Positions 5,304 through 24,629 of a stretch of DNA of 64,000 nucleotides are shown piece after piece. Each line of letters opens with the position of its first letter. Positions within the stretch are counted from its first letter, which is position 1. The notes beneath the pieces are model-generated. The model had not been told where the DNA came from and made no database searches. It saw nothing but the letters and a program-made list of their open reading frames with translations. The stretch lies in the IMG/VR virus record IMGVR_UViG_3300028738_000008, one strand, 5' to 3'. Both the position numbers and the translations under genes were made by a program. The DNA is from a virus. Its lineage: Duplodnaviria > Caudoviricetes.

Positions 5304-5334
5304 TTTGCAAGTTACAAATTAATGATTACCTTTG
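5304..5334 (+). promoter_or_regulatory. Bacteroidota housekeeping-sigma promoter of tRNA operon 1
   Basis: TTTG-N19-TACCTTTG. Confidence 0.85.
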
Positions 5335-6995: not shown

Positions 6996-8009
6996 ATGAA
7001 AATATTATTTATATTAAAAGAAAGATTTTATAATAATTCGTTAATCAAGTCATATGGACTAATGAATTCATCAACGCATGTTTCGAAGTATTTAGACTCT
7101 ATTGGACTTTGCACAAAAGTAGTGAGAGTTGTTGATGGAAATTCAATTGATAAAGAGGTTCATGAATACAAACCAGATGTCGTCATTATTGAGGCTTTAT
7201 GGGTAAGCGGCGAAAAACTAAAAGAACTTATTGAGATAAAGAGATATTCCCATATCAGATGGATTGTAAGAGTTCACAGCGATATTGGCTTCTTGGCTGC
7301 TGAGACTTTGGCATTGAAATATATTAATGATTACATTAGCCTCAATAAGCATAATTTGGTCATAGCACCAAACAATAAGGAATTTAATGAGTATCTTACG
7401 AATGCTATGAATTTTAAATTCAAATATCTTCCCAATATTATTAATGTTAAATCATCAGATCATTCTTTAGTAAAGCATCCGCACTCAATAGATATTGGAT
7501 GTTTTGGTGCATTAAGAATACTGAAAAATCATGTATTTCAAGCTATGTGTGCAATGAGCGCAGCGGATATATTAAATAAGACATTGCGCTTTCACATTAC
7601 TGTAGATGCGAACGCCGATAAAGCAAATCTAAATCCAGTATTAAAGAATTTGGAGGAATTATTTAAACGTAGTTCTCATGAATTGATCTGTCATCCTTGG
7701 ATGGAGAATGACGAGTTTCAGGGTCTGGTTAGAAAAATGGACATAGGCTTACAGCTTTCATATACCGAAAGCTTCAACATTGTCGCAGCAGATTTTGTTA
7801 ATAATGATATTCCAATTATCGTATCAGATGCCATTGATTGGATGCCAGATATATTTAAAACATCTACAATTGATTACGAAGAAGCGACTAATAAAATAGT
7901 TTCAATCTATAAATCCAGAACTTTGGGTCATAAAAAGAATGTTGCTTTTGATAGTTTGGTAAAATATAATCGTAAGGCTCAACAAGAATGGCTAGATTTC
8001 ATTATCTAA
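6996..8009 (+). CDS. GT-B fold (GT4-like) glycosyltransferase
   Basis: PDVVIIE, IGCFGALRILKN and DIGLQLSYTESFNIVAAD motifs. Confidence 0.7.
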   Translation: MKILFILKERFYNNSLIKSYGLMNSSTHVSKYLDSIGLCTKVVRVVDGNSIDKEVHEYKPDVVIIEALWVSGEKLKELIEIKRYSHIRWIVRVHSDIGFLAAETLALKYINDYISLNKHNLVIAPNNKEFNEYLTNAMNFKFKYLPNIINVKSSDHSLVKHPHSIDIGCFGALRILKNHVFQAMCAMSAADILNKTLRFHITVDANADKANLNPVLKNLEELFKRSSHELICHPWMENDEFQGLVRKMDIGLQLSYTESFNIVAADFVNNDIPIIVSDAIDWMPDIFKTSTIDYEEATNKIVSIYKSRTLGHKKNVAFDSLVKYNRKAQQEWLDFII

Positions 8010-8829: not shown

Positions 8830-8877
8830 TAAAATAGTGAATTATTTTAAACTTTTTTGATTTTTTTACTATTTATA

Positions 8878-8908
8878 TTTGCAGGTATCAAAAATTGTAT
8901 TACCTTTG
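8878..8908 (+). promoter_or_regulatory. Bacteroidota housekeeping-sigma promoter of tRNA operon 2
   Basis: TTTG-N19-TACCTTTG. Confidence 0.85.
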
Positions 8909-8938
8909 TACCGAAATTAATATTTAAGAATAGAAACA

Positions 8939-9031
8939 ATGAGAAATTTACTTAACATAGAATTATTGGCAGTGGATCAGGTCAACCTCCTATTATGGGC
9001 GGATGAAGATAGATTATGCCATGCTGGTTAA
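8939..9031 (+). CDS. Leader peptide 2 MRNLLNIELLAVDQVNLLLWADEDRLCHAG (Leu/Trp/Ala/Asp/Glu/Val sensor)
   Basis: Consecutive L L L W A D E D codons; lies between promoter and terminator. Confidence 0.85.
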   Translation: MRNLLNIELLAVDQVNLLLWADEDRLCHAG

Positions 9032-9056
9032 GTAGAGTTTAAGAATATTTTAAACT

Positions 9057-9087
9057 AAACCCCCAGCATACGTGTTGGGGGTTTTTT
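9057..9087 (+). terminator. Attenuator terminator 2
   Basis: AAACCCCCAGCA-tacg-TGTTGGGGGTTT plus T run. Confidence 0.9.
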
Positions 9088-9131
9088 GTTTATGTACGTT
9101 ATTTGACATGTTGGGTTATAAAATTAAAATT

Positions 9132-13232: not shown

Positions 13233-14855
13233 ATGAAAACATTACACGAATCGCCATTTGTATATTTATATGAAAACTCTGGCCATAAGGAAAAAACTGT
13301 TCGTAGCATTAATATAAATGCAAGTAAGGCACAAGCAATATACGTTCCAGTGCCACCACCAACAGTTAACGCCTTATTAATGACTTTTAATGATATATCA
13401 GGTACTTTTGTTACAGACCCATCATCTGTTGAAGAATGGAACATATTTTTTGATTTACCAGTAAATGGTAATCCGTTTACATCTGTCTCAATATCTTCAA
13501 ATACCGTTAGTTTATTTGGCGGTAGTGACATAACTCTAAAAAATTACTTATTCGGCGATACTGATTTTGGAAACAATCTGTTGGAGTTCATTGATGATAG
13601 CGGAATCATTATTAATAGTGGTAATGGAGCATTTAGCGATACAGGCGAAATTGGTAATGGATGCCACAATATAACAAAAATATCAATGTCAGCATGCGTA
13701 TCATTAGGTGATGAAACATTTGCTGATTGCTATTCATTAACAGATTTATCATTACCATTCGATAGTTATGTTACCTTGGGTTCAAATATTTTTCGTTCTT
13801 GTGGTATGGCATCATTAAGCTTTTCATCATTAACAATGGCTGGAGATAGCTGCTTCAATAGCTTGTCACTTTTAACTGAATTTAGTGCACCAATATTAAT
13901 CGTTGCGGATATGAATTGTTTTTCTGGATGCGTTGCAATATCAGCAATATCATTGCCGTCATTAACAACGGCTGGAGACGGCTGTTTCAGTAATTGCGTA
14001 TCGTTATCAATTCCTGATCTACCAATTGCAACAACTGCTGGAGTTAACTGCTTTTACAATTGTTCGACATTATCATCATTATCATTACCAGATTTAGTTA
14101 CTGCTGGAGAAAGCTGTTTCAGTAATTGCGTATCGTTATCAACTGTCGATCTGCCATTATTAACAACTGCTGGAAATGGTTGCTTTTACGGTTGTCCATT
14201 ATCATCATTATCATTACCAGATTTAGTTACTGCTGGAGAAAGCTGCTTTATGGGAATAAGATCATTTACTACCATGAATTTACCATCCTTATCATCGATA
14301 GGTACTACTTGTTTTCAAGATTGCGCATCTTTGTTAGCAGTTAATTTACCAGCATTAATCACAATGGGCGAAGGCTGTTTTAATGGATGCACATCTTTAC
14401 TAACAGTAGACATGCCACAGTGTCAAACAGCTGGCGGCGGTTGCTTTAGTTATTGTACGTCGTTAACATCAGTAGACATGGCATCACTGATTTCAATGGG
14501 AAATTCATTTTTTTTAAACTGCATATCTTTAGTGACATTAAATCTTCCTTTATTATCGTCTGCCACGCAATCTTGTTTTGCGACCTGTACATCATTGGTA
14601 GACATCAGTTTACCATCATTAATATCAACTGGTAATTATTTCTTTAACGGCTGTACGTTATTAACAAACATCAGTTTACCGTCATGCGTTAGTTTAGGAC
14701 TTACTTTATATAATGATTCAGTTTTCAATAATATTACAGGCAAAAAAATAACTTTAACAGTGCCAACAGCTTTAATGACTTGTAATAGTGGATCGCCTGA
14801 TGGTGATATAGCTTATTTACAGGCTAATAACATAGTAACACTGATAACAGTTTAA
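13233..14855 (+). CDS. BspA-type (LRR_5) leucine-rich repeat protein
   Basis: Many 22-23 aa repeats of the form SLPSLTTAGDGCFSNCVSL. Confidence 0.85.
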   Translation: MKTLHESPFVYLYENSGHKEKTVRSININASKAQAIYVPVPPPTVNALLMTFNDISGTFVTDPSSVEEWNIFFDLPVNGNPFTSVSISSNTVSLFGGSDITLKNYLFGDTDFGNNLLEFIDDSGIIINSGNGAFSDTGEIGNGCHNITKISMSACVSLGDETFADCYSLTDLSLPFDSYVTLGSNIFRSCGMASLSFSSLTMAGDSCFNSLSLLTEFSAPILIVADMNCFSGCVAISAISLPSLTTAGDGCFSNCVSLSIPDLPIATTAGVNCFYNCSTLSSLSLPDLVTAGESCFSNCVSLSTVDLPLLTTAGNGCFYGCPLSSLSLPDLVTAGESCFMGIRSFTTMNLPSLSSIGTTCFQDCASLLAVNLPALITMGEGCFNGCTSLLTVDMPQCQTAGGGCFSYCTSLTSVDMASLISMGNSFFLNCISLVTLNLPLLSSATQSCFATCTSLVDISLPSLISTGNYFFNGCTLLTNISLPSCVSLGLTLYNDSVFNNITGKKITLTVPTALMTCNSGSPDGDIAYLQANNIVTLITV

Positions 14856-14902
14856 ATTAATTTGAAGAATTTAAACTTTTTTATAAAAAATCACTATTTA
14901 TA

Positions 14903-14934
14903 CTTGCAGATGTAATTTATTTGAATTACTTTTG
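14903..14934 (+). promoter_or_regulatory. Bacteroidota housekeeping-sigma promoter of tRNA operon 3
   Basis: CTTG-N20-TACTTTTG. Confidence 0.8.
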
Positions 14935-14963
14935 CACCAGTTAAAAACAATTAAAAAATAGAA

Positions 14964-15041
14964 ATGATGAATGCAACACTTAAATACGGAAAGACTACTA
15001 AATCTTATAAAAAATATAAGATGAAGAAGGACTGTGTGTAA
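14964..15041 (+). CDS. Leader peptide 3 MMNATLKYGKTTKSYKKYKMKKDCV (Lys/Tyr sensor)
   Basis: 8 Lys and 3 Tyr in 25 codons; lies between promoter and terminator. Confidence 0.85.
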   Translation: MMNATLKYGKTTKSYKKYKMKKDCV

Positions 15042-15063
15042 GTGAACTATATATAATATATTC

Positions 15064-15098
15064 AAAAACCCAGTCTTAATTTAAGTCTGGGTTTTTTT
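15064..15098 (+). terminator. Attenuator terminator 3
   Basis: AAAAACCCAGTCTTAA-t-TTAAGTCTGGGTTTTT plus T run. Confidence 0.85.
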
Positions 15099-15112
15099 AT
15101 GTTAAAAAATTC

Positions 15113-15184
15113 GCTCCTATAGCTTAATGGTAAAGCCTTCGACCTTTAATCGAATGACCCCTGAATCAGTATCAGGTGGGAGCA
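15113..15184 (+). tRNA. tRNA-Lys(TTT)
   Basis: TTCGA-CCTTTAA-TCGAA; variant T loop. Confidence 0.8.
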
Positions 15185-15200
15185 CAGAGTATAGTAAGTC

Positions 15201-15271
15201 GCTTCTATAGCTCAATGGTAGAGCTTGTAACTTTTAATTATAAGACCTCGGTTCGATTCCGAGTAGGAGCA
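15201..15271 (+). tRNA. tRNA-Lys(TTT)
   Basis: TGTAA-CTTTTAA-TTATA. Confidence 0.85.
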
Positions 15272-15281
15272 CAAAATTATT

Positions 15282-15354
15282 GCCTTCGTAGCTTAATCGG
15301 GAAAGCTGTACACTCTTAATGTAAGGAGCGTGAGTTCGATCCTCACCGAGGGCA
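15282..15354 (+). tRNA. tRNA-Lys(CTT)
   Basis: Loop CTCTTAA; GCCTTCG/CGAGGGC. Confidence 0.9.
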
Positions 15355-15361
15355 CAAATAT

Positions 15362-15443
15362 GGGATGGATGGTAAGCAGGCGAAATCAGCGGATTGTAAA
15401 CCCGTCGCTACCAGCTATTTAGGTTCGAATCCTAACCGTCCCA
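15362..15443 (+). tRNA. tRNA-Tyr(GTA)
   Basis: Loop TTGTAAA; long variable arm; A73. Confidence 0.85.
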
Positions 15444-15502
15444 CGTGAGAGACCGTTATAATTTCAAAGTCCACTTGGTATCGGAAGCGTAGAAATTAAT
15501 TT

Positions 15503-15586
15503 GGGGATGTATGCAAATGGTTGAAGCAAGCGGTCTGTAAAACCGTGACGTAAGAGACGATGCTGGTTCGAATCCAGCCAGCCCCA
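15503..15586 (+). tRNA. tRNA-Tyr(GTA)
   Basis: GCGGT-CTGTAAA-ACCGT; long variable arm. Confidence 0.9.
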
Positions 15587-15648
15587 CTTGGTAGACTGTT
15601 ATAATTTCATAGAACCCATTAAGTGTGGTATGCGTGGAAATTAAAAAT

Positions 15649-15729
15649 GGCGGCAGACGGGTAATGGAAATCCTAGGGGCATGCAATCCTGAGTCACAGA
15701 CTATGTTGGTTCGAATCCAACCGTCGCCA
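15649..15729 (+). tRNA. Atypical tRNA of undetermined identity (best-centred anticodon TGC, possibly GCA), long variable arm
   Basis: Good T arm and acceptor GGCGGCA/CGTCGCC; weak anticodon stem with loop CATGCAA; extra arm AGTC-ACA-GACT. Confidence 0.5.
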
Positions 15730-15753
15730 CAATGAATTAAAAATTAATTAGAT

Positions 15754-15993
15754 ATGGAAACATTAGTAGAAATCATCAAAGGAAATCGTGCCGTTATGTC
15801 GCACGTATGCAATGCTAAAGCTTATTTTATCATTGAAACAATGAATAACAAGTATCAACTTGAAATGGACAGCACTGATGGTGATTGGAAGACAACACAC
15901 ATGCAGACTGAATACGCTGCTATCACATTAATGCGATGGATACGCCGAGGTATTGACGAAAAGGACGGAACATTTATATCACTATATGAATAA
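15754..15993 (+). CDS. Hypothetical protein
   Basis: 79 aa ORF after the tRNA cluster. Confidence 0.7.
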   Translation: METLVEIIKGNRAVMSHVCNAKAYFIIETMNNKYQLEMDSTDGDWKTTHMQTEYAAITLMRWIRRGIDEKDGTFISLYE

Positions 15994-16049
15994 GTTACAA
16001 TCAGCTTGGAAATAAGAATGGCGATTGAAGAAATTTAGTCGCCATTTTT

Positions 16050-16075
16050 TGTAACCTTTTTGGTTTCTTAACGTA
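16050..16075 (+). promoter_or_regulatory. ECF-type promoter upstream of the suppressor tRNA
   Basis: TGTAAC-N16-CGTA, 15 nt before the tRNA 5' end. Confidence 0.7.
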
Positions 16076-16089
16076 TAAGTATTAAAATT

Positions 16090-16161
16090 GGCTCGTTAGT
16101 TCAGCGGTTAGGGCGTCTGACTCTAAATCAGAAGGCATGGTTTCGAATACCATACGAGCCG
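16090..16161 (+). tRNA. Amber suppressor tRNA (anticodon CTA)
   Basis: TCTGA-CTCTAAA-TCAGA perfect arm; GGCTCGT/ACGAGCC; G73. Confidence 0.9.
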
Positions 16162-16175
16162 CAAATAATTATAAT

Positions 16176-16472
16176 ATGAGAAAAATAACTGTTGAAAATG
16201 TGATGGCTGATGATCCTATGAAGGTACTCCAGCAATGGCGTAGCGTTAATGATAAGATCACCAGATTCATAAACGTGGCAAATCCAAGGGTTTATATGTT
16301 CATATTTGGCGAATCAGAAGGCATGCGACTATGGGAACATTTCGTAAACAATTGCGACAGACATGATTTCCAGAAATTTATGACATATTTAACATCAGAG
16401 CAATACAATGACCTGATGATCAATTTATATTATAATGACGGCATGTATTCATTGGTGCATTATAACGATTAA
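16176..16472 (+). CDS. Hypothetical protein
   Basis: ATG 16176 directly after the suppressor tRNA. Confidence 0.65.
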   Translation: MRKITVENVMADDPMKVLQQWRSVNDKITRFINVANPRVYMFIFGESEGMRLWEHFVNNCDRHDFQKFMTYLTSEQYNDLMINLYYNDGMYSLVHYND

Positions 16473-16482
16473 TAAAAAAAGA

Positions 16483-16514
16483 CTTGCATAATTGAATTAT
16501 TTAGTTTATTTTTG
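16483..16514 (+). promoter_or_regulatory. Bacteroidota housekeeping-sigma promoter of pth2
   Basis: CTTG-N20-TATTTTTG. Confidence 0.75.
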
Positions 16515-16549
16515 CAGTCTATTAGTATTTAATATTAAAAAGTAAGATT

Positions 16550-16879
16550 ATGACGTAGGTTAAATTAGTAACAGTAACAAGGAAAGACCTCAAAGCAGGT
16601 TATCAATTAGTACAGTCAGCACACGGCTTAGCTGAGTTTGCACATGTATATCCAACACATTTCAATGATTGGATGCGAGATTCAAAGTATCTCGTTTCAT
16701 TGTCAGTCGATAATGAAGAAAACCTCAAAGAATTATTTAGTGAATTAACCAGTAATGGCGCAATCATTGTGGCATTTAACGAACCTGATATAAATGATCA
16801 GCTGACATCGATATGCTTTTATGGTACGCCAGAGATTAGGAAATTGACTGAACATTTAGATTTAGCATTAAAAAATTAA
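16550..16879 (+). CDS. pth2: Peptidyl-tRNA hydrolase, Pth2 family, with in-frame TAG at codon 3
   Basis: ATG ACG TAG, then in frame VKLVTVTRKDLKAGYQLVQSAHGLAEF...FNEPDINDQLTSICF (Pth2 N-terminal V-R-x-D-L...Q-x-x-H motif and EPD motif); the track ORF 16673 is only the C-terminal part. Confidence 0.8.
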
Positions 16880-24578: not shown

Positions 24579-24629
24579 CGTTGATAGCAGTAAGGCTATC
24601 GTTTCTTTGACATGTTGGAATTAAAATAA

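Follow-up and report, generated by a model that had tools for sequence, protein, structure and literature searches.

A 64,000-nt stretch of DNA from an uncultured jumbo phage (Duplodnaviria; Caudoviricetes; IMG/VR record IMGVR_UViG_3300028738_000008), hereafter termed the window, contains a short open reading frame (ORF) rich in lysine (Lys, K) and tyrosine (Tyr, Y) codons that lies between a promoter motif and a terminator hairpin, ahead of a group of Lys and Tyr tRNA genes. This arrangement, one of four leader units in the window and referred to here as unit 3, is proposed to be a ribosome-mediated (leader-peptide) transcription attenuator that would gate the phage's own Lys/Tyr tRNA genes according to demand, a reading to which we assign a probability of about 0.77. 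The tRNAs would probably be made only when ribosomes read Lys and Tyr codons slowly. An attenuator had already been put forward in a previous inspection of the same DNA (the original prediction), and the evidence gathered here supports it at the sequence level: the promoter, the K/Y ORF, the antiterminator/terminator alternative and the cognate tRNAs are all present. They follow one another on the + strand in the order promoter, K/Y ORF, terminator, Lys/Tyr tRNAs (Table 1).

Table 1. Positions in the window of the elements that make up the Lys/Tyr unit
Feature	Position	Strand	Description
Bacteroidota-type promoter (predicted)	14904–14934	+	TTGC(AG), 19 nt, then TACTTTTG; pattern search
Leader ORF	14964–15041	+	25 codons, reads MMNATLKYGKTTKSYKKYKMKKDCV followed by the stop codon (15039–15041)
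Region 1, 5′ half of 1:2 hairpin (predicted)	14977–15009	+	carries K7, Y8, K10, K13 and Y15; minimum free energy (MFE) fold
Region 2, 3′ half of 1:2 hairpin (predicted)	15015–15044	+	holds AGGACUG (15028–15034) and the stop codon
Region 3, terminator 5′ arm (predicted)	15064–15079	+	AAAAACCCAGUCUUAA; CAGUCUU (15071–15077) pairs with region 2
Region 4, terminator 3′ arm and U7 tract (predicted)	15081–15098	+	UUAAGUCUGGG; U7 at 15092–15098
tRNA-Lys(UUU)-like gene, non-canonical	15113–15184	+	Rfam RF00005, 53.5 bits; not called by ARAGORN
tRNA-Lys(UUU)	15201–15272	+	ARAGORN and Rfam, 71.3 bits
tRNA-Lys(CUU)	15282–15355	+	ARAGORN and Rfam, 60.1 bits
tRNA-Tyr(GUA)	15362–15444	+	ARAGORN and Rfam, 39.6 bits
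tRNA-Tyr(GUA)	15503–15587	+	ARAGORN and Rfam, 54.2 bits

A Lys/Tyr-rich leader ORF between a promoter and a terminator

The window DNA is AT-rich and phage-like, and contains 34 tRNA genes on the + strand (ARAGORN, Rfam). A recount of the leader ORF gave the same figures as the original prediction, namely eight Lys codons (four AAA and four AAG) and three Tyr codons (two TAT and one TAC) among 25; the regulatory codons are K7, Y8, K10, K13, Y15, K16, K17, Y18, K19, K21 and K22. That prediction had also argued that the Lys richness was not due to chance. When all ATG-initiated ORFs of 15–60 codons present in the six frames of the whole window were compared (620 ORFs), the leader ORF ranked first for its K+Y fraction (0.44, versus 0.32 for the runner-up), and its K+Y content had a binomial P = 7.7e-5 relative to the composition of the window's long ORFs; both figures agree with that argument.

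The promoter motif lies 37 nt 5′ of the leader ATG and includes a TAnnTTTG -7 box at 14927–14934, from which the transcript is predicted to start at around 14941–14943. In the pooled set of leaders described below, 27 of 32 had a TAnnTTTG box within the 90 nt that precede the ATG. The + strand of the 14700–16700 region contains two such promoter motifs in all, of which this is one, and no further Bacteroidota-type promoter motif was found on this strand between the leader and position 16484 in a search limited to consensus motifs.

The ORF is followed by a hairpin whose stem (15064–15096) runs into a T7 tract (15064–15098 overall) and which accounts for approximately -15.7 of the -34.8 kcal/mol of the total fold. 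A simple terminator scan did not list this hairpin because of an internal U-U mismatch. The first tRNA-like gene begins just 14 nt after the T-run. Given this short gap and the lack of an intervening promoter motif, the tRNAs should depend on readthrough of the terminator. Since no promoter motif intervenes up to ORF 16137–16472 (111 amino acids), the unit possibly extends that far, and the attenuator may also gate this ORF, ORF 15754–15993 (79 amino acids) and the amber-suppressor tRNA(CUA) located at 16090. The hairpin was also considered as the mere terminator of the LRR gene located upstream, a possibility that was rejected given the promoter motif and the conserved ORF found in between.

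Alternative folds of the leader RNA

The window leader is predicted to fold as a classical four-region attenuator, with alternative 1:2, 2:3 and 3:4 pairings. The MFE structure of the 14945–15100 segment consisted of hairpin 1:2 plus terminator 3:4 (-34.8 kcal/mol, z = -5.65). Removal of region 4 left a leader RNA with z = -3.17, and none of 200 shuffled sequences was equally stable. According to the original prediction, an AGGACTG segment of the ORF could pair with a CAGTCTT segment of the terminator; both heptamers were located where it had placed them, and they formed seven pairs, one of them G.U. This 2:3 duplex amounted to -8.9 kcal/mol (p = 0.037 relative to shuffled ORFs). What had been overlooked was the 1:2 anti-antiterminator hairpin, which completes the classical design; this hairpin holds most of the K/Y codons, so that the anti-antiterminator overlaps the regulatory codons.

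When a ribosome was masked at Y18 and arm 4 was absent, the MFE structure contained the 2:3 pairing. The masked stretch ended at the 3′ edge of a ribosome whose A site holds Y18, this edge being assumed to lie about 12 nt beyond the first base of the A-site codon. Under that assumption, ribosomes stalled at K7–Y18 leave strand 2 free, while those stalled at K19–K22 cover it.

Conservation of the unit in related jumbo phages

A close relative found in IMG/VR, named G001, carries all four leader units; its 148 kb are estimated to be 45% of the complete genome, which makes it a jumbo phage. Unit 3 of G001 is 100% identical to the window over 14949–15193, the flanks showing 12 differences in the 72 nt before this segment and 21 in the 165 nt after it. 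A minus-strand ORF of 227 amino acids (7322–8005, in the 7270–8005 segment of locus L008) replaces in G001 the two Tyr tRNAs, and a sub-threshold tRNA match (25.1 bits) was observed at 7270–7350. A 22-nt piece of tRNA-Lys(UUU) used as a query for window-type relatives returned G001 alone, and no relatives were found when the protein encoded at 6996–8006 was used as a synteny anchor. Among GenBank phages, matches were obtained for the tRNA genes and none for the leader.

A search based on a neighbouring gene, that coding for ribonucleotide reductase (RNR), provided 80 loci in contigs of up to 360 kb. Wherever the locus reached far enough, a Lys/Tyr tRNA cluster was present on the upstream side of the RNR gene, at a distance of about 2 kb, and every one of these clusters was preceded by a terminator and a homologous leader with the consensus M.TFGTYYYGKKSYKK.LIGIGN... 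The KSYKK core is common to the window leader ORF and to these homologous M..FGTYYYGKKSYKK.. leaders of the relatives. In three apparent exceptions (L039, L066 and L012) the leader was present further upstream, and in L028 it preceded Tyr and Lys tRNAs that ARAGORN had missed or miscalled. In the latter locus, at 8832–8915 and 9010–9095, ARAGORN misses a tRNA-Tyr(GUA) and labels as ‘Leu(gag)’ a tRNA-Lys(UUU) whose D region is enlarged. The tRNAs of these phages are undercounted by tRNA finders.

The IMG/VR database was also inspected with a pattern made of RNA features alone (AATCGGG, 40–70 nt, CCCGATTC, 5–9 nt, CGGGTTTTT). This structure-only pattern was found at 35 loci, and a K/Y ORF with Lys/Tyr tRNAs downstream was present in 35 out of 35. 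The leaders were pooled into a set of 32 non-redundant sequences (the window plus 31 others from related jumbo-phage contigs), with L028 as an additional one. The leader ORF was open in all 32, with a median of nine K/Y codons in the relatives. In each of the 31 other leaders the K/Y run was in frame, a strand within the ORF was complementary to the 5′ arm of the terminator, and Lys/Tyr tRNAs followed. This conservation was observed at RNR identities of 54–70%. The K/Y run of related phages had been proposed as a check in the original prediction; it is kept in the 31 leaders and in L028, and the ORF is thus conserved.

These data bear on the simplest alternative, namely that the K/Y richness and the pairings arose by chance in AT-rich intergenic DNA and that the hairpin terminates the upstream LRR gene. 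AT-rich DNA does favour Lys and Tyr codons, and the 2:3 duplex of the window is by itself of marginal significance (p = 0.037). However, the first rank of the ORF among 620, the conservation of the leader in 31 others plus L028 at the RNR identities mentioned, the promoter motif between the LRR gene and the ORF, and the covariation described below all speak against chance, which conservation directly contradicts; the relatives are too divergent to be assembly duplicates of one sequence. This explanation is therefore hardly credible.

Leaders written in the codons of the tRNAs that follow them

The promoter box ATTACYTTTGYACC of unit 3 is shared by three other units of the window, where it is located at 5325, 8899 and 24262, and at each of these sites a small ORF comes next, then a hairpin with a T-run and finally a tRNA cluster. 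When the four leaders of the window were matched to the four tRNA sets, the cognate assignment was the best of the 24 permutations. An automated scan blind to composition, which looked for ORFs of 15–60 codons ending at most 75 nt before a hairpin with a T-run, the hairpin being at most 450 nt from a tRNA, yielded 61 non-redundant leader candidates ahead of tRNAs. Their mean cognate fraction was 0.37, versus the 0.18 expected, and the real pairing scored higher than all 2000 shuffled pairings. For six representatives of the leader families, the identity assignment ranked first out of 720; since leaders are related within families, this family-level figure is the safer one. The original prediction had relied on the parallel with the three other leaders of the window, which is reinforced by the shared promoter box and by a cognate pairing that is the best of 24 in the window and the best of 720 among families.

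Further families include one with the sequence MKNLIKITRITRKRRTTSSNGFIV, located before Thr, Arg and Ile tRNAs, and another with MKLVNLNNNFCNLNSNSISGSNFFGS.., located before Asn, Phe, Ile, Ser and Gly tRNAs. Leader families with a Thr/Arg/Ile-rich ORF ahead of Thr, Arg and Ile tRNAs, and with an Asn/Ser/Phe/Gly-rich ORF ahead of Asn, Phe, Ile, Ser and Gly tRNAs, were observed in the relatives L070 (15687–15761 and 19068–19190) and L028 (15461–15568 and 18442–18561).

Covariation, and separation of coding from RNA constraints

The strand of the ORF predicted to act as antiterminator varied together with the terminator. Leaders of the main type have an in-ORF strand, GAAUCGGG, that is fully complementary to CCCGAUUC, the 5′ arm of the terminator. 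In L064 the same strand GAAUCGGG faces the arm CCCGGUUC, through a U.G pair. The strand is GAAGAUCGG in L070 and GAAGAUCAG in L028, both with the arm CUGAUCUUC, while L074 combines CUGGAUCAGG with CCUGAUUCAG. Four terminator sequence types were distinguished, each with its own matching in-ORF strand (that of the window being AGGACUG/CAGUCUU). In the 16 leaders analysed in this respect, the in-ORF strand paired better than shuffled ORFs (p ≤ 0.053). Ten representative leaders, including those of the window, L064, L070 and L074, were folded: the free RNA adopted the 1:2 and 3:4 pairings, and a ribosome on the K/Y run led to the 2:3 pairing. Helix 1:2 also covaried. Among 29 main-type leaders, nine of its pairs had changed on both sides, compared with 3.3 ± 1.2 in shuffled alignments (none of 500 reached this value) and with 4–6 in slid controls. 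In one compensatory example, a Lys codon that is either AAG or AAA pairs through its third base with the first position of a Leu/Phe codon (CUU/UUU), the combinations found being GC in 22 leaders, AU in six and GU in one.

The reading frame showed constraints of its own. The K/Y run was in frame with the ATG in 32 of 32 leaders, and the insertions and deletions found there were multiples of three. Lys and Tyr codons changed synonymously among leaders, and aligned codon 11 was AAA (K) in some and TAT (Y) in others, two codons that differ at two bases and both specify a sensed amino acid. Conversely, in L009 and L051 the anti strand GAAUCGGG was unchanged as RNA but was read in another frame (IGN becoming ESG). 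Of the 29 main-type leaders, 19 had a distance of exactly 13 nt from the start of the last codon of the run to the anti strand (range 9–16 nt), a spacing that corresponds to about the leading (3′) edge of a stalled ribosome. Judging from these alignments, the coding constraint is separable from the RNA constraint.

Two other explanations can be weighed with these results. One is a translation-independent RNA switch, in which a protein, a small RNA or a tRNA would bind the leader directly, the ORF being a by-product of an A/U-rich structured leader. The conservation of the anti strand as RNA whatever its reading frame, and the covariation of helix 1:2, would be expected of such a switch, and K and Y codons are indeed A/U-rich and form part of the 1:2 helix. 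A switch of this kind, however, does not account for a frame that stays open from the ATG to the K/Y run in all 32 leaders with indels in threes, for the synonymous changes of K/Y codons, or for the K-to-Y swaps. Nor does an element defined by structure alone predict that leader families should carry different sets of amino acids matching their own tRNAs. Moreover, no T-box or other Rfam cis-regulator was matched: neither the T-box nor any Rfam amino-acid leader family gave a hit at gathering score in the window, or at E ≤ 1 on 14860–16200. A translation-independent switch is accordingly considered quite unlikely.

The other is that the ORF codes for a small basic peptide that has its own function, that the hairpin is the terminator of its gene, and that the tRNAs arise from constitutive leaky readthrough or from the processing of a longer transcript, with no sensing involved. 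The high conservation of the core YYYGKKSYKK and the strength of the terminator fit this idea. It leaves unexplained, though, the presence within the ORF of a complement of the terminator arm that changes along with the terminator, the change of frame at the C-terminal end with the RNA kept, and the composition of the sister leaders, each of which favours the amino acids of the tRNAs that lie downstream of it. In addition, a strong unconditional terminator 14 nt ahead of promoter-less tRNA genes would defeat their expression. We regard this explanation as improbable.

A proposed demand-driven attenuator: its operation and points against it

The proposed attenuator would operate as follows. The host RNA polymerase would start at the Bacteroidota-type promoter, giving a transcript from position ∼14942, and a ribosome would translate the leader of 25 codons. 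With fast decoding of Lys and Tyr codons, the ribosome would reach the stop codon at 15039 and cover strand 2, or helix 1:2 would re-form behind it; arms 3 and 4 would then make the terminator, and transcription would end at the U7 tract. When charged tRNA-Lys or tRNA-Tyr is in short supply, the ribosome would stall on K/Y codons 7–18, in region 1. The stall would keep helix 1:2 open, allowing AGGACUG to pair with CAGUCUU before arm 4 is made. With the terminator blocked, the polymerase would read into the Lys/Tyr tRNA genes, and the new tRNA would speed up decoding and close the switch, a negative feedback that would provide tRNAs on demand. This scheme presumes that the leader is translated, that transcription and translation are coupled in the host, and that the switch responds to tRNA levels.

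Several observations weigh against this attenuator. The window-type leader has a single relative (G001), which is identical and hence provides no covariation of its own; support from covariation therefore comes from homologous leaders of other types. Within the main type, the 2:3 core is invariant and thus carries no covariation information, so that covariation of 2:3 relies on the four sequence types. When ORFs and terminator arms were swapped, the resulting matrix was not clean, since the L074 and main-type arms are similar: main-type ORFs paired as well or better with the L074 arm. The 2:3 helix of the window is short and far weaker than the terminator, and the switch must therefore be kinetic. 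K19, K21 and K22 lie too near strand 2, so that a stall at these codons would mask it and favour termination. The G001 leader keeps its Tyr codons, yet no canonical tRNA-Tyr was found in that unit. Coupling of transcription and translation is assumed for a host that is itself presumed to belong to Bacteroidota. Finally, amino-acid starvation would trigger the switch too, without benefit to the phage.

Relationship to known regulatory systems

Classical leader attenuators include trpL, hisL, pheL and leuL, as well as the multivalent thrL (Thr/Ile) and ilvL (Ile/Leu/Val). The unit described here resembles the trp, his, thr and ilv leaders in having a promoter, a short ORF with regulatory codons, mutually exclusive 1:2, 2:3 and 3:4 pairings, and a terminator with a U-tract, and, like thrL and ilvL, it would sense more than one amino acid (Lys and Tyr). 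It differs from the attenuators of biosynthetic operons in that its output consists of tRNAs rather than enzymes, so that the loop would close on decoding capacity, and in being carried by a jumbo phage with Bacteroidota-type promoters. A further difference from classical attenuators is that, in most relatives, the stop codon lies 18–28 nt beyond strand 2 instead of before it.

The pheST attenuator of E. coli (pheM leader) subjects phenylalanyl-tRNA synthetase to the speed at which cognate codons of the leader are decoded. As in that system, a gene of the translation apparatus would here be under the control of leader-peptide decoding, although pheST has a synthetase as output, resides in a bacterial chromosome and responds to a single amino acid, whereas the present unit has tRNAs as output and resides in a phage. 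T-box riboswitches likewise couple the status of a tRNA to terminator readthrough through a competing antiterminator, but they bind the uncharged tRNA directly, by means of a specifier codon and the T-box sequence and without translation, while the element analysed here contains a conserved, presumably translated ORF. A full-text literature search revealed no account of tRNA genes controlled by attenuation, either in phages or in bacteria, and none was present in a 2026 review on jumbo phages. The mechanism is old; what is new is the regulated output, the tRNA genes, and the carrier, a jumbo phage.

Cultured phages such as T4, T5, and Bacillus and Enterococcus myophages also carry tRNA genes, including those for Lys and Tyr. 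Why phages carry tRNAs and how these are regulated has long been debated, the main views being codon compensation and the replacement of tRNAs destroyed by host defences. Among such defences, PARIS acts on tRNA-Lys and retron Eco7 on tRNA-Tyr. The PrrC anticodon nuclease cleaves tRNA-Lys(UUU), and it has been proposed that phage tRNAs replace the host tRNAs lost in this way (PMC10264068). That the Lys/Tyr unit senses PrrC or other defences is plausible, as a speculation. A broader idea, according to which this clade of jumbo phages runs its full tRNA complement under codon-matched attenuators, with each tRNA group transcribed only when the cell slows down on the corresponding codons, and uses the Lys/Tyr unit as an alarm and repair circuit against tRNA-cleaving defences, is tentative and rather doubtful. 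If the attenuator operates as proposed, these phages would gauge decoding capacity for individual codons and replenish it when needed, and the trp-type attenuator would extend to tRNA outputs and to phages of Bacteroidota. It would also provide a compact part of ∼160 nt able to report the availability of specific tRNAs in vivo.

The downstream tRNA genes and neighbouring elements

The original prediction listed three tRNA-Lys and two tRNA-Tyr genes. Four of these are canonical tRNAs; the third tRNA-Lys was recognized by Rfam only and is non-canonical. In this gene, the first after the terminator, C33 replaces the near-universal U33 and the T-loop, AUCAGUA, is non-canonical; the gene is identical in G001. 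C33 adjoins the position at which PrrC-type nucleases cut, and it may be speculated that this tRNA-Lys variant might resist cleavage by them.

Positions 15649–15728 contain a tRNA-like sequence that has an acceptor stem and a canonical T-arm, GTTGGTTCGAATCCAAC; its sole match was a weak one to tRNA-Sec (21.4 bits, E = 0.03). The spacers located 3′ of each of the two Tyr tRNAs (15445–15502 and 15588–15648) are alike, both containing ..GAC(C/T)GTTATAATTTCA..GGTAT..G(C/T)GT(A/G)GAAATTAA.., and may act as processing signals or have been left behind by a duplication.

The segment between the terminator and the first tRNA showed conserved sequences in other units and loci. In units 2 and 4 of the window (9098–9131 and 24606–24629) it contains a conserved TTTGACATGTTGG(G/A)(T/A)T..AAAAT motif that could mark a site of processing or act as a second promoter; unit 3 does not have this motif. 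Short direct repeats, namely two copies of GCATAAAAACGCATA and three to four of TGAAAAACAG(G/T)TAT, fill the 130–200 nt between the terminator and the first tRNA in L014 (7985–8136), L021 (7954–8087) and the equivalent regions of L057 and L065. In L039 (8130–8420), L066 (7240–7530) and L012 (2600–2900), the stretch from the terminator to the first tRNA that ARAGORN calls includes a conserved element of ∼200 nt, ..AATCGCAATCGTGAGATAAAAAAAC..GAGCAGTGGAAGGTGCTGACAGGCA.., as well as a tRNA-like gene whose anticodon stem carries an insertion.

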